Both the position numbers and the translations under genes were made by a program. Below, piece by piece: positions 3,434 through 64,000 of a stretch of DNA of 64,000 nucleotides (position 1 is its first letter; each line of letters starts with the position of its first letter). A model generated the notes under the pieces. It had not been told where the DNA came from, did not search any database, and saw only the letters and a program-made list of their open reading frames with translations. Source of the stretch: Anaerolineaceae bacterium (lineage in GTDB: Bacteria > Chloroflexota > Anaerolineae > Anaerolineales > Anaerolineaceae); contig JBAQMM010000252.1 of NCBI GenBank assembly GCA_049302815.1, positions 957-64,956 of the forward strand, given 5' to 3'.

Positions 3434-4756
3434 ATGAAGAAATTTCAGATTCTTACTGCACTGTTGTTAGTTTCCATGTTGGTCCTCAGCTCCTGCAGTA
3501 GCACGCCGGAATCCACTCAAACGGTGATCCCTGAGAGTGAGACAACCACTTTGGTAGTTTGGGATCAGTTCTATCGGGATATCGAAAGCCAGGTGATGGA
3601 CACCCTCAATACAGAATTTGAAGCATCTCATCCCGGTGTAAAGATCGAACGCGTCGTGAAAACCCTGGACGATCTTAAAGTCACTCTGAAATTAGCCCTT
3701 TCAGAAGAGGACGGCCCGGATATAGCTCAGGTTAACCAGGGTCGAAGCGACATGGGCGCCATGGTCGAAGCCGGGCTGCTGCTCCCCCTAGATCCTTACC
3801 TTGAGAAGTACGGCTGGGGAAATATCTTCTCGACTTCCGTTGCCAGCCGAAACAGTTTCACCGCGGATGGCAAAACCTTTGGGCAGGGAAACCTCTACGG
3901 GGTCAGTCCTACCGCTGAAGTTGTCGGGGTCTTCTACAATAAAGGCATTTTCAAGCAAAATGGCTGGGAAGTTCCCGCCACCTTCGAAGAATTTGAAGCT
4001 TTGCTGGCAGAGATTAAAGATGCAGGTGTTACGCCCATTTCTTTCGGCAGCTTGGACGGTTGGAATGCCATTCATGAGTTTAGCGCCATTCAGCACCTTC
4101 TGGTTAGCTCTGATTACATCAACAACCTCACTTACGGCGTCAACAATGTATCCTTTGACACACCGGAAAATCTGAAGGCTGCGGAAATTCTTCAGAACTG
4201 GGCCAAATCAGGTTACTTTAGCGAAGGTTATGCCGGCATTGGTTACGATGACAGCAACTTGTTGTTCAAATCGGGCAACGGCGCCATGACCATCACCGGT
4301 TCCTGGCAGGCTGGCGAACTGGTCAACGATACCGATCAGGAATTTGGTTTCTTCCTGCTTCCGCCCTATGAGGGCAAGACTTCCATGGCTATTGGCGGTG
4401 TGGGCATCCCGTTCGCCATTCGAAAGACCACCGCTAAAGCTGATCTGGCGGCCGAGTACCTGAATTGGATGATCAGCCCCCGCGCAGCCACGCTCTGGGC
4501 TCAAGCCGGCATGCTGCCAGCTATGTCCCTGCCGGAGGATGCCGAAATTGAAACTGATAATCTCTTTGGCGATACGCTGAAAGCCTGGGACACCATCAAT
4601 AAGGGCAATGCTGTTGGTCACTATATTGACTGGGCTACCCCAACCTTTTACGATACCCTCGTCGCAGAATTGCAGAAACTGCTGGGAAGCATCAGCACTC
4701 CTGCGGATTTCACCGCGGCAGTCCAGCTGGATTACGCGGCTTTTCTAAGTAAATAG
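3434..4756 (+). CDS. Sugar ABC transporter substrate-binding lipoprotein (solute-binding family 1)
   Basis: 440 aa. It has a signal peptide with lipobox LVLSSC and a GGAG Shine-Dalgarno sequence upstream. It is followed by two MalF/MalG-type permease genes. Confidence 0.85.
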   Translation: MKKFQILTALLLVSMLVLSSCSSTPESTQTVIPESETTTLVVWDQFYRDIESQVMDTLNTEFEASHPGVKIERVVKTLDDLKVTLKLALSEEDGPDIAQVNQGRSDMGAMVEAGLLLPLDPYLEKYGWGNIFSTSVASRNSFTADGKTFGQGNLYGVSPTAEVVGVFYNKGIFKQNGWEVPATFEEFEALLAEIKDAGVTPISFGSLDGWNAIHEFSAIQHLLVSSDYINNLTYGVNNVSFDTPENLKAAEILQNWAKSGYFSEGYAGIGYDDSNLLFKSGNGAMTITGSWQAGELVNDTDQEFGFFLLPPYEGKTSMAIGGVGIPFAIRKTTAKADLAAEYLNWMISPRAATLWAQAGMLPAMSLPEDAEIETDNLFGDTLKAWDTINKGNAVGHYIDWATPTFYDTLVAELQKLLGSISTPADFTAAVQLDYAAFLSK

Positions 4757-4770
4757 CCTCAAAGGACACT

Positions 4771-4806
4771 AACCGACGCTCCCCTGGGGGGCGTCGGTTG
4801 TTTTTT
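4771..4806 (+). terminator. Intrinsic terminator/attenuator hairpin between the binding-protein and permease genes
   Basis: AACCGACGC (4771-4779) pairs perfectly with GCGTCGGTT (4791-4799), and the hairpin is followed by TTTTTT. Confidence 0.7.
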
Positions 4807-4817
4807 GATCGATCACC

Positions 4818-5720
4818 ATGCATCAAAATAACGCATACCCGGGAGAGTCACGTTGGAAGGGTTGGCTGTACCTGCTGCCCGGTCTGCTGATTTACTTGGT
4901 CTTTACCTTCTACCCCATCCTCGATACGGTCCGCACCAGTTTTTTCCAGTGGGATGGCTTTAGCAATCAGCGTATTTTTATTGGCTTCGAAAATTACAAA
5001 ACCCTCTTCTCCGATCAGCAATTCACCAATGCTTTTTTGCACAACCTGGTATTCATCATTTTCTATTGCATCATTCCGATATTCATCGGTCTGCTATTAG
5101 CCTCGCTTCTCAGCCGCAACAAACTCCCGGGATTTACGTTTTTCAGAACAGTCTTGTTTTTACCCCAAGTGTTGAGCATGGTAGTGGTGGGCGTGATCTG
5201 GCGCTGGATCTTCAATCCCACTTTCGGTCCATTAAATGTGACCCTCAGCGCCCTGGGATTGAGTCACCTGACCAGAGCCTGGTTGGGAGATTTTTCCCTG
5301 GCGTTGCCAGCGGTAGGCTCCATTGGAACTTGGGTTGAATACGGCTTTTGCATGATCCTTTTCCTGGCTGGCATGCAGCATATCCCTGAAGAATATTATG
5401 AAGCCTCCAGCCTGGATGGCGCCAACGCCTTTCAGCAGCTCATTCATATCACCATTCCAGGGCTTCGATCGGAAATAGGTGTGGCGTTGGTCACCACGAT
5501 TATAGCTGCGCTGCGTGTGTTCGATCTGGTTTATGTCACCACCCGCGGGGGACCCGGAAACGCTACCCTGGTCACCGGTTTTCTGATTTACCGCTCAGCC
5601 TTTCTGCAGAACAAAATTGGCTACGCTGCCACCATCGCAACCGTTCTGATGCTGGTTATCCTGACCATTTCGCTACTCATCCGCAAGTATCAAGGTAAAA
5701 ATGAGGAAGACGGGGCATGA
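4818..5720 (+). CDS. Sugar ABC transporter permease (MalF/UgpA-like)
   Basis: 300 aa with multiple TM segments and an EAA-loop-like EASSLDGANAFQQLIHITIPGL. Confidence 0.88.
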   Translation: MHQNNAYPGESRWKGWLYLLPGLLIYLVFTFYPILDTVRTSFFQWDGFSNQRIFIGFENYKTLFSDQQFTNAFLHNLVFIIFYCIIPIFIGLLLASLLSRNKLPGFTFFRTVLFLPQVLSMVVVGVIWRWIFNPTFGPLNVTLSALGLSHLTRAWLGDFSLALPAVGSIGTWVEYGFCMILFLAGMQHIPEEYYEASSLDGANAFQQLIHITIPGLRSEIGVALVTTIIAALRVFDLVYVTTRGGPGNATLVTGFLIYRSAFLQNKIGYAATIATVLMLVILTISLLIRKYQGKNEEDGA

Positions 5721-6544
5721 AATACCACTGGAAATCCTTGCTTCCCCGTTACCTGGTATTGACTGTTTTCATGTTGCTGGTGCTCGTCCCAATCTCAGGG
5801 ATCATATTAAGTGCTTTCAAAACCGATACCCAGGTGATTCAGGGACCTTTCAGCCTGCCTACGACTTGGAACATCGAAAACTTTGTGCGAGCCTGGTCGG
5901 TCGGCCGTTTTAACATCTTCTTTAAAAACAGCGTCATCGTCACCACCGCAGTGGTGGCAGCCAGTGTTTTTCTATCCATCCTGACCGGTTACGCCTTTGG
6001 ATTACTGCCGATGCCCGGTAAAAAGTTCCTGTTCCCTTTGATGCTCCTGGGATATATGGTTCCATTTGAAGCTGTGATCATTCCCCTCTACAACTTCATG
6101 GACCTGCTGCATCTGCGGGATACCTACTGGGCTTTGATCCTCCCCCAAGTGGGCTTAAGTGTTTCCTTTGGCACACTCTGGATGACTTCTTTCTTTGAAA
6201 ACGTCCCCAGGGAATTGGTGGACGCCGCCACCATGGACGGCTGTACCCGCTGGCAGACCCTCTGGAGAGTCTTGTGGCCACTTTCCAAACCTGCCACGAC
6301 CACCCTGATCGTGTTGATCTTCATGTGGACCTGGAATGAATTCCTGCTCGCGCTAGTCATGGTGCAGGATGAAGCCATGCGCACCTTGCCGGTGGGGCTG
6401 GCATTTTTCCAGGGGAAATATTCAGCCAATATTCCCCTCCTGGCAGCCGGGGCTCTGATAGTCGCCATCCCAACCGTGATTGTCTATATCATCTTCCAAC
6501 GGTTTTTCATCAGGGGCATGCTGGGTGGCGCCGTAAAGGGATAG
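5717..6544 (+). CDS. Sugar ABC transporter permease (MalG/UgpE-like)
   Basis: 275 aa with EAA-loop DAATMDGCTRWQTLWRVLWPL. It overlaps the previous permease gene by 4 nt (ATGA). Confidence 0.88.
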   Translation: MKYHWKSLLPRYLVLTVFMLLVLVPISGIILSAFKTDTQVIQGPFSLPTTWNIENFVRAWSVGRFNIFFKNSVIVTTAVVAASVFLSILTGYAFGLLPMPGKKFLFPLMLLGYMVPFEAVIIPLYNFMDLLHLRDTYWALILPQVGLSVSFGTLWMTSFFENVPRELVDAATMDGCTRWQTLWRVLWPLSKPATTTLIVLIFMWTWNEFLLALVMVQDEAMRTLPVGLAFFQGKYSANIPLLAAGALIVAIPTVIVYIIFQRFFIRGMLGGAVKG

Positions 6545-17397: not shown

Positions 17398-18408
17398 ATG
17401 AAGGCAAAACTTACCCGCAGGGAATTTCTTAAATACGGACTGTTCGGACTTGGGGCGCTGGCTTTCCTGCCGAATCATACAGCCTCAGCGGGTGCCAAAG
17501 CCCCCCGTTACATGTTGGTGGGAAATAAAGATGGCACCAGTATTCACAAACTTCCAGATGAGTCCAGCGTGATCATGTACCAGCGCGCCTACAACGACAT
17601 CATCAATGTTTATGATGAGGTCGTCAGTGAAGCCGGGCCCATCTGGAATCCCGTCTGGTTCCGGGTCTGGGGCGGATATGCTTTCAGTGGAGATCTATAC
17701 GAAGTCAAGTACAAACTCAACCCCCTGCAAACTGAAATCCGTGAAACAGGCCAACTTGCAGAAGTCACCGTCCCATACACCAGATCCATGTTCTACAGCA
17801 GGTATGAAGGCTGGAAGCCGGAATATTTGTTGTATTACCGCTCTACCCATTGGGTCATGGATGTCCTCACCGGACCGGATGACAAACCCTGGTATAAGAT
17901 CAAGGATGAGAAGAATTCCGTAGAGCTGGCAGTTCCTTCGGAACACCTGCGGTTTGTTCCCGATGAGGAACTTGCGCCCATTCATCCTGACGTGCTGCTT
18001 GGAAAGAAACGGATCGAGGTATCCCTTCCGCTGCAGCGTCTGCAGGCGTATGAAGGGGATGAACTCATCTTTGAAACGAAAATATCCTCAGGATTTCCCA
18101 CGCCGGAAGGAACCTACAATATCCAGACTAAAATGGCTTCCAAACACATGGGATTGGGCAACGTCACCAGTAATGTCTATGCGCACGAATTGGTAGGTGT
18201 TCCCTGGAACTGTTTCTTCCAGATGAAGGATGGCATGGCAACACACGGCACTTTTTGGCACACTAATTTTGGCACCCCCATGAGTGGTGGATGCCTGAAC
18301 ATGTCCATGGATGATGCGAAATGGATCTACCTGTGGACCACCCCGATCCCAGCGCCGGAAGATTGGGCGAAACATGGCTATGGGACGCCAATTCACATTT
18401 CCAAGTAG
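17398..18408 (+). CDS. L,D-transpeptidase (YkuD domain) with Tat-type signal
   Basis: It has the twin-arginine-like TRREFLKYG signal and the catalytic region HGTFWHTNFGTPMSGGCLNM (H...SxGC). Confidence 0.85.
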   Translation: MKAKLTRREFLKYGLFGLGALAFLPNHTASAGAKAPRYMLVGNKDGTSIHKLPDESSVIMYQRAYNDIINVYDEVVSEAGPIWNPVWFRVWGGYAFSGDLYEVKYKLNPLQTEIRETGQLAEVTVPYTRSMFYSRYEGWKPEYLLYYRSTHWVMDVLTGPDDKPWYKIKDEKNSVELAVPSEHLRFVPDEELAPIHPDVLLGKKRIEVSLPLQRLQAYEGDELIFETKISSGFPTPEGTYNIQTKMASKHMGLGNVTSNVYAHELVGVPWNCFFQMKDGMATHGTFWHTNFGTPMSGGCLNMSMDDAKWIYLWTTPIPAPEDWAKHGYGTPIHISK

Positions 18409-59697: not shown

Positions 59698-60669
59698 GTG
59701 ACAGATCAAAATAATACGTCCCATCCAGCGGAATCAAAAACTCCTCAAAGTTCTGCAGCCAACCTCAGCCTCGGCAAGACCGAACCTGATCAGGTTACCC
59801 AACCGGTGCAGGTAAAGGCTGCTACACCAGGCAGCCTTCCGCAGCTAGATTCGATACCTGCCACTGGAGTGGACAACACTTCTGCTGCCCCCTTCGCGGA
59901 AGAGCCTGAAAGATCAACCCCTCAAACTGCCAGGATGAACGAGGATACCAGACCGGTTATGGTTTCAACGCAGCCTGCCGAACGATCCTTAGCTCAGGCG
60001 AGCCAACCTGATAGCTTGCGTGGGGAAACTGTTGACCTGCCAGAATGGCTGATAACCTTTGCCAGTCAGGACGAGACTTTCGCACCCCCGAACACCTTTA
60101 CTGAACAAACCCAGAAAGTTACTGCGGTTCAGCCCCTGATAGAAACTGGTACGGAAACTACCAAACCTCAGCCAGTTTCAGAAGAAGCCATCTTTCCAGT
60201 TAAGGTTGGAGACTGGGCCCACGAAGAAGAACTCACCGAAAAGACTTCAGATCTGGTCGAGGGCGAGATGCATTCTCAGAGCGAAGAAACCCAGGAAAAC
60301 ATTCTTAGGGCAGCCCCAAGCGCAATGCCGGCCGTCCCAATCCCCGCGGTTGATGATACCCCTTCCGCCGGGAACATTAACGAAGTGTTTCTTACAGAAT
60401 TTCAACAGAAGTTGGAGCTTGGGCAATATCACGAGGCAGCAGATTTGATCAGGCAGCATGTCGATGATCAGGTAATTCGGGACTTTGCCATCCAATCCAT
60501 GAGGCAGCACTTAAATCTACAGCCTGCAAGCCAACCGCTCTGGGATCTTTTCGCAGAACTGAACGCCAAAGAAAATCAACCCAAACTGGCCGTCCAGGCA
60601 CTGGAGACTGCCAGGCAAATCAACATGATTCACGGAGAAAGCAATGGAACGCTCACTGGTATTGGTTAA
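59698..60669 (+). CDS. Hypothetical acidic, Pro/Thr/Glu/Gln-rich protein with helical C-terminus
   Basis: 323 aa with a GTG start. The N-terminal two thirds are low complexity, and the C-terminal roughly 100 aa are helical-repeat-like. It overlaps the ndk start by 26 nt. Confidence 0.5.
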   Translation: MTDQNNTSHPAESKTPQSSAANLSLGKTEPDQVTQPVQVKAATPGSLPQLDSIPATGVDNTSAAPFAEEPERSTPQTARMNEDTRPVMVSTQPAERSLAQASQPDSLRGETVDLPEWLITFASQDETFAPPNTFTEQTQKVTAVQPLIETGTETTKPQPVSEEAIFPVKVGDWAHEEELTEKTSDLVEGEMHSQSEETQENILRAAPSAMPAVPIPAVDDTPSAGNINEVFLTEFQQKLELGQYHEAADLIRQHVDDQVIRDFAIQSMRQHLNLQPASQPLWDLFAELNAKENQPKLAVQALETARQINMIHGESNGTLTGIG

Positions 60670-61105
60670 ACCCGATGGGGTGCAACGAGGGCTGATCGGC
60701 AAAGTAATTACTACGTTGGAAGACCGCGGTTTACGCCTGGTGGCTGCCCGCTTCCAAATTGTCAGCCCGGAACTCGCCCAAGCGCATTACGCCGTTCATG
60801 TCGGTAAACCATTCTATGAGCCTTTGATCCAATTCATCACTTCCTCACCGGTCATGGCAATGGTATGGGAAGGTCCAGATGCCATCGCGGCTATCCGCCA
60901 GACCATGGGAAAAACCCGCGGCACGGAAGCTGCCCCCGGTACCATCCGGCATGATTATGCCCTGCAAGCCCGGTACAACCTCACCCATGCTTCTGATTCA
61001 CCCGAAACTGCCGAAGCTGAAATTGCTCTATGGTTCAAACCCGAGGAACTGGTCGAATGGAAACGGGACATCGAAGATTGGATTTACGAATGTGAACAAC
61101 GATAA
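60644..61105 (+). CDS. ndk: Nucleoside diphosphate kinase
   Basis: It has MERSLVLVKPDGVQRGLIG, and NLTHASDS contains the catalytic His. Confidence 0.95.
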   Translation: MERSLVLVKPDGVQRGLIGKVITTLEDRGLRLVAARFQIVSPELAQAHYAVHVGKPFYEPLIQFITSSPVMAMVWEGPDAIAAIRQTMGKTRGTEAAPGTIRHDYALQARYNLTHASDSPETAEAEIALWFKPEELVEWKRDIEDWIYECEQR

Positions 61106-61835
61106 TTTGGATGATCTTGTCTTGATTTACCTTGCAAAAGGTCGTTTTGCTGGGGAGATGGTCAAATCTTTCCTGGAAGCGCAAGGGATATCTGTGATGT
61201 TGAGCCAGGAAGCAGCCGGAGGCGTTTACGGTCTGACTGTCGGAGACCTGGGAGCTGCCGAAATTTTTGTGCATGCCAAAGATGAGGAAAAGGCAAAAGA
61301 CCTGTTGCAGGCCATGGAAGATGGTGAGTTCTCAGATGAACATCTGGTGGAAAAACTGGGTCAGAAAGAGTCCTTGGGACCCCAATCCAGATCTGAAGAA
61401 CAAGATCTGCAGGACCGCAAACGAGTTTTGATCCTGTGCACAGGCAATTCCGCCCGCAGCCAGATGGCAGAAGCCGTGGTTAACCATGACTGTTGGGACA
61501 AATGGGTGGCCTTTAGCGCGGGGACAAAGCCCGCAGGTTTTGTCCATCCCTATGCCCAGGCGGTTCTAAAAGAAGCCGGCATTTTCCATCAGGGCGAATC
61601 AAAGTCCGTGGATGTATTCAAAGGGCAGACCTTTGATTTGATCATCACGGTCTGCGACAACGCCCGAGAAACCTGCCCTATATGGCTTGGCAAAGGCAAC
61701 CGGATCCACGTCGGTTTTGAGGATCCTGCCGCGGTAACAGGCTCCGAAATGGAAAAAATGGCGGCGTTTCGGAAGACACTTGTACTCATCAGAGCCACCA
61801 TACCTCCAATCTTAAATCAATACGCAAGCGAATAA
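61092..61835 (+). CDS. arsC: DUF2007-like N-domain fused to thioredoxin-coupled (LMW-PTP-type) arsenate reductase
   Basis: The C-terminal half has the P-loop CTGNSARS (CX5R-S) and the VCDNARETCP Cys-x6-Cys pair. The N-terminal roughly 75 aa (LVLIYLAKGRFAGEMVKSFLEAQGI...FVHAKDEEKAKDLL) resemble DUF2007. The start is GTG 61092 or TTG 61107. The tracked start at 60879 overlaps ndk and is rejected. Confidence 0.78.
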   Translation: MNNDNLDDLVLIYLAKGRFAGEMVKSFLEAQGISVMLSQEAAGGVYGLTVGDLGAAEIFVHAKDEEKAKDLLQAMEDGEFSDEHLVEKLGQKESLGPQSRSEEQDLQDRKRVLILCTGNSARSQMAEAVVNHDCWDKWVAFSAGTKPAGFVHPYAQAVLKEAGIFHQGESKSVDVFKGQTFDLIITVCDNARETCPIWLGKGNRIHVGFEDPAAVTGSEMEKMAAFRKTLVLIRATIPPILNQYASE

Positions 61836-62121
61836 ATTAAAACTATGTAATTATTCAACTGTGTGGCAAATAATCCCTGTTCTTATCACAGTCAAGTGTC
61901 AATCATATGTAATGAACTTAACGCGAATTTAACATGCATTCGTGTATATTGTTTTTAGATCGATTGATTAAGTACTAAATCTTTCATACCTAGGCACACC
62001 TTGCTAAGCAAACTGACTTTGGTAAGTGATTGGGCAGGCAGCTAATGTAATGACTAAGTAGTTTGTGTTCATAAAAGAACTCATTACTGTCTCATGAGTA
62101 AACCGATTAGAGAGGTGAACA

Positions 62122-62856
62122 ATGAAAAATATGCTACGAGTTTTAAAGAGAATGGGGGAGGCTGGGATAATGACTTTGTTATTACCGTTTAGCGCTTCAA
62201 CGTACCATGATGTTACGAATCGAAAAAACGATTTTCTAATTCTCTCGCACAATCAAGAAGTTCCAAAAGACTCTCTCCCTTTTATATTACCAACGTTCCA
62301 AAGTATTCCTCAAAAGGAAGTGACAGTTGATAAACCTTCCCGGGATATGCGTGCTGAAACAAATTTCTATTCAAGTATTGAAGAATTAAAATCAGTAACT
62401 ACACTTCCACTGTATACCTTTGATTCGGACAGTATTCGAAGTAGATACGCTGGGGCGTTTGTCACAAGTTTCTTGAAAGACGGGAAAGTATGGCTTGTCC
62501 GGCAAGTCTATTCAAATGATCAAAGCGAAGAATTAACGATAGATACTATTCCTATTATTTCTCGACCAGTTCCTGTCTCTCCAGCTTTAGTTTCCAAAAG
62601 TCTGGGGGAACAAAATTTATATACTCATGATGATGATTATCTATGGGTTAATCCTGAATACACAACAGAAACGCCAAATCCTGGCATTATTCAAAAGTAT
62701 GATATTGGTTTCTGCATTATGTGGATTGAAAAAGATGTTCTATACGTGATCAATAATATGCAGAATTCTAGTTCTTTTGGTCCAGGAGTTCTACTGAAGC
62801 TTTTAATAAAACTATACGAGGAACCAGATGACAATCCTGACAGTGTATGTTTATAG
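62122..62856 (+). CDS. Hypothetical secreted protein (cassette ORF A)
   Basis: 244 aa with an AGAGGTG Shine-Dalgarno 5 nt upstream and a Sec-type signal (MKNMLRVLKRMGEAGIMTLLLPFSAS). It is AT-rich. I recognise no family motif. Confidence 0.6.
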   Translation: MKNMLRVLKRMGEAGIMTLLLPFSASTYHDVTNRKNDFLILSHNQEVPKDSLPFILPTFQSIPQKEVTVDKPSRDMRAETNFYSSIEELKSVTTLPLYTFDSDSIRSRYAGAFVTSFLKDGKVWLVRQVYSNDQSEELTIDTIPIISRPVPVSPALVSKSLGEQNLYTHDDDYLWVNPEYTTETPNPGIIQKYDIGFCIMWIEKDVLYVINNMQNSSSFGPGVLLKLLIKLYEEPDDNPDSVCL

Positions 62857-63397
62857 CCCGCTTGCCGGGTGGATAAGTGGCCGCGATTATTATTGTGGGG
62901 CAACATCAGTATGTAATGGTGATGGTGGCATCCATGGTTCCTGTGGAGGAGGACAAAACCGAGTGGACGTCGCCGGATCAGGAACTCTTTACTTTCGAGC
63001 AACAAATATTAGAAGCCTATACCTCTCTTATGGAACATGCGGTAGCGGATGCTCTACAGATATCATGCGAACTCTGAAGATAAGTCTATATGGTAAACCA
63101 GATGGATTTTGCCCAGTCGGTTCCGTTCTCTATGCACATGTTGGTCAACCATTGTTACCCTCAGGTCTACAAAACTATAGTGGTGGTTTATTGGCGATAG
63201 GATCGACACCTTCAGGGACATGTGGTGATTTCTACACCGGTGCACACTCGCACATGGAAAGATTTGGGGGCACCGTGGTTGCACCTTGTTGTTATGCGAA
63301 TGTCACAACAGGCACTGCAATCTATAAGTTCACTTGGGATGATAGCATCATCTGCCCAGGGATTTCGGAATTGGATTTTGAAGGTCCGTCACAGTGA
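62828..63397 (+). CDS. Cys-rich protein with M23A (LasA/beta-lytic protease)-like metallopeptidase motifs (cassette ORF B)
   Basis: 189 aa with 10 Cys. It has H36-x10-D47 (IHGSCGGGQNRVDVAG), YAH104 and TCGDFYTGAH140SH142MERF. This parallels the M23 pattern H..D / YxH / C.GG.STGPHLHF. It has no signal peptide and overlaps ORF A by 29 nt in the +1 frame. Confidence 0.55.
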   Translation: MTILTVYVYSPLAGWISGRDYYCGATSVCNGDGGIHGSCGGGQNRVDVAGSGTLYFRATNIRSLYLSYGTCGSGCSTDIMRTLKISLYGKPDGFCPVGSVLYAHVGQPLLPSGLQNYSGGLLAIGSTPSGTCGDFYTGAHSHMERFGGTVVAPCCYANVTTGTAIYKFTWDDSIICPGISELDFEGPSQ

Positions 63398-63915
63398 ATA
63401 AAAGACACATAAGTATTTGCCTAGTATTATTACTGCTTGTTTCTTGCTCTGTCGATAATGATGAAACCGCGCGCCCTACTGAAATTGCACCAACTGGTGG
63501 AATAACGACACCAAAAATCCTGACTTATAAGGCACCAGGAATTTCCTTTTCGGCGTTTGAAATCGATTATGATCCTGAAGCTTGGCAAGAGCAGAAGGTA
63601 GAAGGCAGTACTTTACGTTACCTAGAGTCTGTCCAACAGCCTGGATGTATTTTTCAAGACTTATTAGGAAGTGGAAACGGTCCTTATGGAGAAGAATTCC
63701 ATTTTACGATTGATGGAAGGAAATTTACATATTACCTAAATACACCTGATGATTATCCAGTAGAAAAAGCACATCAATCGCTCCTTATATACTATAAAGA
63801 CCCAAAACCTGATTCTTTAGAAAGTTGGGGTTTTCAAGTATTTGCTGATTCTCGGATGTTTGACCAATGCTTTGATCTTGTAAAAGAGCTTCTCAAGAAT
63901 CTGAGATTAGACTGA
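63394..63915 (+). CDS. Hypothetical lipoprotein (cassette ORF C)
   Basis: 173 aa with a signal peptide and lipobox LLVSC. It overlaps ORF B by 4 nt (GTGA). I recognise no family motif. Confidence 0.6.
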   Translation: MNKRHISICLVLLLLVSCSVDNDETARPTEIAPTGGITTPKILTYKAPGISFSAFEIDYDPEAWQEQKVEGSTLRYLESVQQPGCIFQDLLGSGNGPYGEEFHFTIDGRKFTYYLNTPDDYPVEKAHQSLLIYYKDPKPDSLESWGFQVFADSRMFDQCFDLVKELLKNLRLD

Positions 63916-64000
63916 GTTGTCCATCAATTCCAGCTTATCATGGGTCATCAGCTCTTTACCCAACCTTTGCTAGTTGATCCCAAGGGACCTATCCCCGCAA

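Follow-up and report, generated by a model that had tools for sequence, protein, structure and literature searches.

Peptidases of the M23 family are defined by two motifs, H(x)nD and HxH, together with a further histidine located approximately 30-40 residues before the HxH and an oxyanion tyrosine. The first histidine of the HxH motif is catalytic and the second acts as a zinc ligand, and in LasA the remaining elements are H(x)12D, His81 and Tyr151 (PMC9662197). M23A enzymes, which include LasA and beta-lytic protease, require a propeptide as well as thiol-disulfide oxidoreductases of the host for productive secretion, and beta-lytic protease contains two disulfides (PMC8715609). In the melC operon of Streptomyces the upstream gene encodes MelC1, which bears a twin-arginine translocation (Tat) signal, and the downstream gene the metalloenzyme MelC2, which is devoid of one and is secreted in a complex with MelC1 (PMC2758597). 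Other Tat hitchhiker complexes include the hydrogenase small and large subunits and PaoABC (PMC4273604). Here we describe a locus of three open reading frames (ORFs A, B and C) in a 64,000-nucleotide stretch of an Anaerolineaceae bacterium of the phylum Chloroflexota (contig JBAQMM010000252.1, positions 957 to 64,956, hereafter the window). ORF B encodes a leaderless, cysteine-rich protein which is likely to contain a very divergent zinc peptidase domain of the M23 type, specifically LasA-like, and it is preceded by the separate partner gene A. The model as a whole, in which an M23A-like leaderless B would depend on a 'pre-pro' partner A supplied in trans and be co-exported with it through Tat, the genes forming a transferable three-gene module, has in our estimation an even chance of being correct, judged from sequence and from analogy.

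ORF B is the founding member of a family that is unannotated in Pfam and NCBIfam. Searches of both libraries returned no match for ORF A or ORF B and only a sub-threshold chance match for ORF C, and no significant match to ORF B was found among PDB sequences with either the single sequence or a 118-sequence profile. Homologues of ORF B form 17 close clusters, and an exhaustive search with the family profile gave 197 representatives at the 50% identity level, nearly all of which are 160-200 amino acids long; related loci were searched for with a 15-sequence alignment, the 118-sequence alignment being too diverse. Across 118 full-length homologues with a mean column identity of 16%, no column is invariant other than D47, H104, H140 and H142, and H36 is kept in 113, which argues that these residues are not conserved by chance. 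They belong to the motifs H36-x10-D47, Y102-A-H104 and C132-GDFYTGAH140-S-H142-MERF, so that H(x)nD, HxH, the upstream histidine and, with Y166, the oxyanion tyrosine of the M23 definition are all found in ORF B. The conservation expected of the metal ligands by the first-pass annotation of this locus is thus borne out for H36, D47 and H142, and extends to H104 and H140. ORF B probably has a complete catalytic set with H36, D47 and H142 as putative zinc ligands and H104, H140 and Y166 as putative catalytic residues.

The AlphaFold2 model of ORF B has a predicted local distance difference test score (pLDDT) of 89 and a predicted template modelling (TM) score of 0.87. Foldseek searches of the PDB with this model return M23/LytM-fold proteins as 13 of the 16 best matches, with LasA (3IT5) in first place and StM23, ShyA, NMB0315, LytM, SpoIIQ, Csd1/2 and phi29 gp13 among the others. 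TM scores normalised to minimal M23 domains are 0.51-0.53 (9gy1, 2b13, 3uz0_B) and Foldseek probabilities reach 0.99. In the viral structure library BFVD the top matches are M23 peptidases, an M23-type Lysin A and 'M23ase core' proteins. At the level of profiles, the ORF B family was aligned by hhalign to a target composed of LasA, 6IK4 and 8AF1. The mature LasA sequence used is identical to 3IT5_A, and the search that established this also gave two further M23A sequences. In local or maximum accuracy (MAC)-relaxed modes, which were used as the global mode gives a meaningless alignment, the family scores 22.4 (E 0.008) as compared to 12-14 (E 0.2-0.4) for controls with reversed or unrelated families. 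The MAC-relaxed alignment brings H36, D47 and H104 of ORF B into register with H23, D36 and H81 of LasA, and H140, H142 and Y166 with H120, H122 and Y151. It likewise pairs C71, C132 and C176 with C65, C111 and C170 of LasA; the disulfides taken as the M23A criterion are C66-C112 and C156-C169 of beta-lytic protease.

ORF B shows several features in common with the M23A enzymes LasA (3IT5), beta-lytic protease (8AF1) and the pseudoalterin-type elastinolytic protease 6IK4. The mature size is alike (189 versus 182 amino acids), the spacing within H(x)nD is long (x10 versus x12), the third histidine is located 36-39 residues before the HxH, a cysteine precedes the TG(A/P)HxH segment and the oxyanion tyrosine is present; three ORF B cysteines align with LasA disulfide cysteines, and LasA is the top structural match. 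Unlike these enzymes, which carry a signal and a propeptide of approximately 170-200 residues on the same chain, ORF B lacks both and its helper is encoded by a separate gene; there is no significant sequence similarity, and the query-normalised TM score to LasA is only 0.33. A further proposed likeness is the need for a helper region of about 200 residues and for disulfide-forming enzymes, as in M23A (PMC8715609). M23B and LytM proteins such as lysostaphin, LytM, ShyA, StM23, Csd1/2, SpoIIQ and phi29 gp13 have the HxH and the upstream catalytic histidine in common with ORF B and, as judged from its predicted structure, probably also the beta-sheet core. They differ in having HxxxD in place of H-x10-D, and in being Sec-exported or phage-borne multi-domain proteins that generally lack structural disulfides.

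A number of results weigh against the assignment of ORF B to M23. The Pfam Peptidase_M23 profile (PF01551) does not match the window protein at E<=1 and matches only three of the 118 family members (best E 0.023), and conversely the ORF B family profile matches no M23 sequence in the PDB. Foldseek E-values lie between 0.01 and 0.5, none being below 1e-3, with query-normalised TM scores of 0.3-0.42, and the hhalign probability for the alignment with M23A is below 5%. Moreover, the Y166 column, which holds tyrosine in 102 of the 118 homologues, has phenylalanine in 12. The first-pass annotation had drawn the same comparison with LasA and M23A, and this assignment is supported, if with weak scores: M23 enzymes dominate the best PDB and BFVD matches, and hhalign aligns the catalytic residues. 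We therefore regard an M23-type, LasA-like domain as likely on the strength of the model and the motifs, and current profile libraries do not capture this branch.

The cysteines of ORF B, exactly ten in the window protein, are in part a family feature. Those at positions 23, 71 and 155 and in column 135 are kept in 102-115 of the 118 homologues (C71 in 115, column 135 in 109). The putative second member of the disulfide with C71 is usually the cysteine of column 135, where the window protein has phenylalanine. The total varies from 5 to 26 across the family, which is further distinguished from LasA by variable cysteine-rich loops and extra N-terminal strands. Some members depart from the single-domain arrangement: the 292-residue protein P0026 contains two partial B domains in tandem, and the Thermoflexus contig behind locus L013 has two A-B pairs, with the A paralogues P0184 and P0202 on one 23.5-kb contig and the B-domain duplication at L013 6007-6570 and 11924-12091. 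A hint of an SH3b domain in P0143 and P0254 is below the Pfam threshold (E 0.011) and suggestive only.

Since ORF A ends 29 nucleotides inside ORF B and is about the size of a propeptide, the first-pass annotation had considered that the two might be halves of a single broken or recoded gene, namely a classical pre-pro-mature M23A protease with a change of frame within positions 62810-62856, be it programmed (+1), pseudogenising or due to a sequencing indel. Its ORF coordinates, the overlap, the motifs and the number of cysteines are all as it described on re-reading of the sequence, as is the closure of the ORF B frame by TAA at 62807-62809, which directly follows another in-frame TAA at 62804-62806. 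The homologous loci, however, point to separate genes. An A-family gene is located directly upstream of B in all 19 Chloroflexota-type loci with enough upstream sequence (10 loci, three more and six from a divergent B subgroup), the A-B spacers in homologous loci are 14-45 nucleotides long, and each B has a conserved N-terminus from Met1 and its own Shine-Dalgarno sequence, GGAGG, AGGAG or GAGGA being present 5-8 nucleotides before the ATG in all ten homologues inspected. No A-B fusion occurs among 254 family proteins (173 of the B family and 81 of the A family). The overlap in the window stems from a TAG-to-TAC change at the stop codon of A, where the window reads 'cta tac gag gaa' and L008, the closest relative, 'tta tag gag gca', and which lengthens ORF A by 14 codons relative to L008 and brings about its overlap with ORF B. 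There is no sign of the suspected indel at the A-B junction either, as Logan contig L015, from a second assembly, is base-identical to window positions 61578-62879. Finally, purifying selection acts on A and B as individual ORFs, and on C as well: across three compact cassettes the ratio of nonsynonymous to synonymous substitution rates (dN/dS) amounts to 0.22-0.35 (A), 0.05-0.18 (B) and 0.15-0.28 (C). On account of its value, the idea that ORF A is decaying debris was rejected.

On the basis of the spacers, the dedicated Shine-Dalgarno sequences, the missing fusions, the origin of the overlap and the purifying selection, a frameshift, pseudogene or recoding is rejected. A single interrupted gene is scarcely credible, it is as good as certain that A and B are separate genes, and the pair is a conserved two-gene system rather than a broken gene. 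The first-pass annotation had further asked whether homologues keep A and B apart with an export signal on B itself: the genes are indeed separate, but B in these loci has no signal of its own. What the data favour is its other proposal, two separate, coupled proteins with a propeptide or chaperone acting in trans, the signal of the partner being of the Tat type in most lineages. In annotation, the overlapping ORFs A and B should be left as they are and not merged by way of 'repair'.

The leaderless start of B is a trait of the family as a whole. Of the 137 representatives whose N-terminus is intact, 132 (96%) begin the domain no more than six residues from Met1, in keeping with the earlier statement that ORF B lacks a signal peptide, and the N-terminal strand is conserved from Met1 as M-x-x-x-Y-V-Y-(A/S)-P-x-S-G. 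The rare exceptions have their own leaders on the same chain, an arrangement that implies an extracytoplasmic function of the B domain. One such case is L018, the one locus without an A gene, in which B carries its own lipoprotein leader. A leaderless B where A is present and a leader on B where A is absent is the pattern that would be predicted if A were the carrier of B. The L018 gene is located in a Bacteroidota-like type IX secretion system context (302-2739), where the leader-bearing B stands between the gene of an NlpC/P60 protein with a Por_Secre_tail, upstream, and that of a Peptidase_C39_2 lipoprotein, downstream, a gene group which looks like a small secreted-hydrolase cluster.

The A family comprises 81 clusters, in which the invariant residues are confined to proline, glycine, tryptophan, phenylalanine and leucine. 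The AlphaFold2 model of ORF A has a pLDDT of 80 (85-97 in the core). A relationship of A to the mature domains of M23A or to B was rejected (hhalign E 0.36 and 0.63, respectively). Two forms of A are found. Short-form proteins of 235-240 amino acids nearly all start with M-L-(S/N/T)-R-R-x-F-(L/I)-K, which is the twin-arginine consensus. Long-form proteins of approximately 300-336 amino acids occur in Thermoflexus and its relatives; their N-terminal part is a thiol-disulfide oxidoreductase domain of about 100 residues (DCC/YuxK-like, DxxCxxC), after which come an internal GRRRLL and a hydrophobic stretch. Fusions of the long form, with an internal RRRFL motif ahead of the A domain, are located at L004 3664-4965, L012 4940-5947, L017 2911-3960 and L020 1103-2089; L020 also encodes a paralogue (4454-5083) with the DCC domain and the twin-arginine transmembrane segment that lacks the A domain.

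ORF A of the window begins with MKNMLRVLKR, which aligns with the M-L-S/N-R-R-D-F-L-K start of its homologues and lacks the twin arginine. Its hydrophobic region is weakly hydrophobic, with a mean Kyte-Doolittle value of 1.72 that is within the range of Tat signals as compared to 3.11 for the Sec-type lipoprotein signal of ORF C. The 'good Sec signal' previously ascribed to ORF A is therefore better described as a Tat-type signal, aligned with those of its homologues, that has lost its arginine pair. The second arginine and the following basic residue of the motif are kept in the window, L008 and L021 copies alike. The organism does have Tat substrates, since a window ORF of 336 amino acids (17398-18408, + strand) starts with MKAKLTRREFLK / MKAKLTRREFLKYGLFGLGALAFLP, a textbook twin-arginine signal. 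No tatA or tatC gene is present in the window. In L001, L002 and L003, the A-B operon is preceded at a distance of approximately 3 kb by tatC and tatA, encoded on the opposite strand (L001 158-1394), which may be coincidental.

Many of the operons that contain A and B encode in addition a GerE-type regulator, a MauE/DoxX membrane protein, a single-transmembrane ORF of about 55 residues and a lipoprotein. MauE with a CGC motif (E 8e-26) is encoded in L001, L006, L009, L010, L011 and L019, and in L019 MauE is located upstream of B and a thioredoxin-fold (TlpA/Redoxin-like) gene downstream. MauE is DsbB-like and can replace DsbB in E. coli via a periplasm-facing CXC site (bioRxiv 10.64898/2026.03.05.709764). 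The MauE, thioredoxin-like and DCC partners fit a predicted oxidative folding of a cysteine-rich exported B. The single-transmembrane ORF of 55-70 residues is conserved and invariably located right after MauE, the stop of one overlapping the start of the other (L001 6224-6394, L006 5931-6092, L019 2971-3186); it has no family assignment apart from weak similarity to DUF4389 (E 0.002), and could be either an accessory subunit of MauE or a holin-like protein. A PD40/Tricorn-type beta-propeller gene is located directly after B in L004 (5656-7974), where it has a lipoprotein-type leader, in L017 (4762-6084) and in L019 (4735-6180). The propeller, MauE and Redoxin-like genes together are reminiscent of mau (methylamine dehydrogenase) clusters, in which MauE and MauD mature the methylamine dehydrogenase small subunit. 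Like that subunit, B is a cysteine-rich and presumably exported protein that is encoded beside MauE (CGC) in the larger operons, and in L019 also beside a thioredoxin-fold gene, but it is unrelated to MauA and lacks the quinone-cofactor residues. ORF C, which the first-pass annotation had missed and which is part of the same A-B-C unit, is weakly related to the lipoprotein of about 205 residues that these larger operons encode, with a profile E of 0.033 (7.8e-5 in the case of L008 C).

The arrangement in the window is more compact. Its A-B-C segment aligns by blastn with L008 5267-7095 at 80% identity over 1830 nucleotides, the similarity ends within 20 nucleotides of the start of A and the stop of C, and the flanks are unrelated. 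The cassette has a GC content of 40.4% as compared to 50.1% for the rest of the window. A third copy, L021 526-2331, adjoins a DDE_3 transposase, a helix-turn-helix gene and a Maff2-family gene. All three cassettes consist of A, B and C only and lack MauE or other redox partners. Amino acid identities between the window and L008 are 54-55% for A, 91% for B and 75% for C, and the C proteins of the window and L021 are 51% identical. The sharp edges of similarity, unrelated flanks, low GC content and neighbouring transposase suggest that the A-B-C cassette is apparently a mobile module.

It is proposed that A would supply in trans the signal peptide and pro-region that classical M23A precursors carry themselves. 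B would fold and take up zinc in the cytoplasm and bind the beta-rich domain of A, and the A-B pair would then cross the membrane together by Tat hitchhiking, as described for MelC1/MelC2 of Streptomyces, with A possibly serving also as a foldase or as an inhibitor of B until its release. Outside the cell the cysteines of B would be oxidised, for which the MauE, thioredoxin-like protein or DCC domain of the larger operons would serve. C would be a membrane-anchored lipoprotein that acts as a partner, an anchor or a self-protection factor, and the likely target of B would be peptidoglycan or another extracellular peptide substrate. The parallel with MelC1/MelC2 lies in a two-cistron organisation with the helper upstream and a leaderless putative metalloenzyme downstream, and in the occurrence in both systems of sub-lineages whose helper lacks the Tat motif (melD and the compact cassette). 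The proteins themselves are unrelated, B being zinc-peptidase-like as opposed to a copper oxidase or redox enzyme. On the passenger side the hallmarks of a hitchhiker pair are found, with B leaderless in 132 of 137 representatives and A adjacent upstream in 19 of 19 loci; the twin-arginine feature of the carrier is present in most of the A family and absent from the window copy. A literature search on hitchhiking with M23 and on MauE/DCC in Chloroflexi returned no prior description of a leaderless M23-type enzyme with a Tat-signal partner, and we know of no peptidoglycan hydrolase or M23 enzyme that uses hitchhiking.

Several observations run counter to a Tat carrier role for A. A protein dependent on many disulfides is not an easy fit for folding ahead of export by Tat. 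The arginine pair is lost in all three compact-cassette copies (L-R in the window, Q-R in L008 and L-R in L021), and in long-form A proteins it is internal, after the DCC-like domain of about 100 residues, where it resembles a membrane anchor more than a cleavable signal. In L008, A is divided over two ORFs that overlap (5284-5892 and 5805-5990), owing either to an assembly error or to a shift of frame close to the C-terminus, B and C being intact. The fold of ORF A has no significant analogue in the PDB (best match RseB, E 0.17, probability 0.18), and an RseB/LolA-like function was not adopted for this reason. In the melD paralogues of Streptomyces, moreover, a helper without the Tat motif goes with an intracellular enzyme (PMC2758597). 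As ORF A lacks the arginine pair in the window's sub-lineage, the use of Tat as export route for ORF B in this organism appears doubtful.

These points leave appreciable room for two other explanations. A might be no carrier at all but, once exported, an inhibitor of B or an immunity factor that neutralises it, or else a membrane anchor that positions B outside the cell; B would then leave the cell by a non-classical route or upon lysis, and C would be a second protective or anchoring factor. The much faster evolution of A and C as compared to B, evident from both the identities and the dN/dS values given above, is often seen in immunity and inhibitor partners, the invariant residues of A are purely structural, and the compact cassette works without the twin-arginine motif; the anchor-like segment of long-form A and the small holin-like ORF that accompanies MauE in larger operons would suit this role as well. 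Such a role would provide B with no export route although 96% of B proteins are leaderless, it would make the conservation of the arginine pair in most A proteins unnecessary for what could be a simple Sec-exportable inhibitor, and the complementary distribution of A and of leaders on B is what a carrier predicts. We consider it unlikely. It is distinctly unlikely, in turn, that B of the window's sub-lineage is retained in the cytoplasm to cleave a peptide substrate there, in parallel to the intracellular enzyme of MelD1/MelD2, or that it has no function in these cassettes. The melD precedent matches the pattern of three compact cassettes devoid of the arginine pair, MauE and other redox partners, and the frameshifted A of L008 could be read in the same way. 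Against this, B in these cassettes keeps all ten cysteines and has a dN/dS of 0.05-0.18, which denotes strong purifying selection, the signal-like N-terminus of A and the lipoprotein C would place two of the three products outside the cytoplasm, the second arginine and a flanking basic residue persist in all three copies, and family members with leaders are evidence that the domain functions extracellularly.

A more radical possibility is that B shares only the M23-like beta-sheet fold and is a metal-binding or cysteine-rich structural or redox protein matured by MauE, comparable to the cysteine-rich, Tat-exported small subunit of methylamine dehydrogenase, with the propeller lipoprotein as the large subunit. 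The recurrence of MauE, thioredoxin-like and PD40 beta-propeller genes around B is reminiscent of mau clusters, and all similarity to M23 is statistically weak. The invariant residues of B, however, correspond to the M23 catalytic set in the order and spacing of M23 and include no tryptophan or cysteine cofactor residues, and the propeller and MauE are both absent from the cassette of the window type. Degenerate, non-catalytic LytM proteins typically lose the M23 ligands. This possibility is very unlikely. Export of B together with A remains our preferred reading, and that A acts through Tat as an export or folding partner of B in the lineages with an arginine pair is a proposition we hold at slightly less than even, from the sequences and the parallel with MelC1. 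A fuller version is no more than tentative: A would be both Tat carrier and foldase, and perhaps latency factor, for a leaderless lytic peptidase that is oxidised outside the cell with the help of MauE, the lipoprotein would confer self-protection, and the whole would constitute a mobile bacteriolytic cassette in filamentous Chloroflexota.

The features of the locus are collected in Table 1. Upstream of the cassette, the region 60644-61835 contains a nucleoside-diphosphate-kinase-like ORF (60644-61105) followed by an ORF with the motif VLILCTGNSARS, which we take to be typical of low-molecular-weight phosphatases or ArsC-type enzymes. These ORFs are separated from ORF A by an AT-rich spacer of 286 nucleotides. 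A promoter and terminator scan gave nothing above shuffled expectation.

Table 1. Features of the A-B-C locus and their positions in the window.
Feature	Positions	Strand	Description
A-B-C cassette	62105-63922		Boundaries from blastn against L008; GC content lower than in the rest of the window
Shine-Dalgarno-like GAGAGG of ORF A	62110-62115	+	6 nucleotides 5' of the ATG at 62122
In-frame TGA	62116-62118	+	Closes the ORF A frame upstream; read from the sequence
ORF A	62122-62856	+	244 amino acids; partner protein with predicted N-terminal signal or anchor and beta-rich domain, fold unrecognised
ORF A residues 1-27 (MKNMLRVLKRMGEAGIMTLLLPFSAST)	62122-62202	+	Putative degenerate Tat-type signal; only the second arginine and the downstream basic residue are kept
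TAC (Tyr) codon in ORF A	62815-62817	+	Site of the TAG stop codon of A in L008
Shine-Dalgarno GAGGA of ORF B	62818-62822	+	5 nucleotides 5' of the ORF B ATG
ORF B	62828-63397	+	189 amino acids; leaderless, cysteine-rich, M23/LasA-like putative zinc metallopeptidase
H36-x10-D47	62933-62968	+	Putative first zinc-ligand motif, H(x)nD; aligns with LasA H23 and D36
H104	63137-63139	+	Putative catalytic histidine 36 residues before the HxH; aligns with LasA H81; role from PMC9662197
H140-S-H142	63245-63253	+	HxH motif; aligns with LasA H120 and H122
Y166	63323-63325	+	Putative oxyanion-stabilising tyrosine; aligns with LasA Y151
ORF C	63394-63915	+	173 amino acids; predicted lipoprotein (MNKRHISICLVLLLLVS-C); GTG start overlaps the TGA of ORF B by 4 nucleotides

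M23 peptidases such as lysostaphin, LasA and beta-lytic protease rank among the foremost enzybiotic candidates. What limits the production of the M23A enzymes is their need for a propeptide and for disulfide formation. If the proposed model is correct, B would represent a new, highly divergent M23-fold branch missed by current profile libraries, and the first M23-type enzyme with its propeptide function on a separate gene, which would make the A-B pair a modular combination of helper and enzyme for expression work. Cell-wall hydrolases would join the short list of Tat hitchhiker cargoes, with B as the first cell-wall hydrolase exported in this manner, and the system would gain in interest if hitchhiking and lytic activity were demonstrated. 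For the Chloroflexota, a phylum with poorly known envelope biology, the A-B systems with their MauE, DCC and thioredoxin partners may show how cysteine-rich exported proteins are handled.

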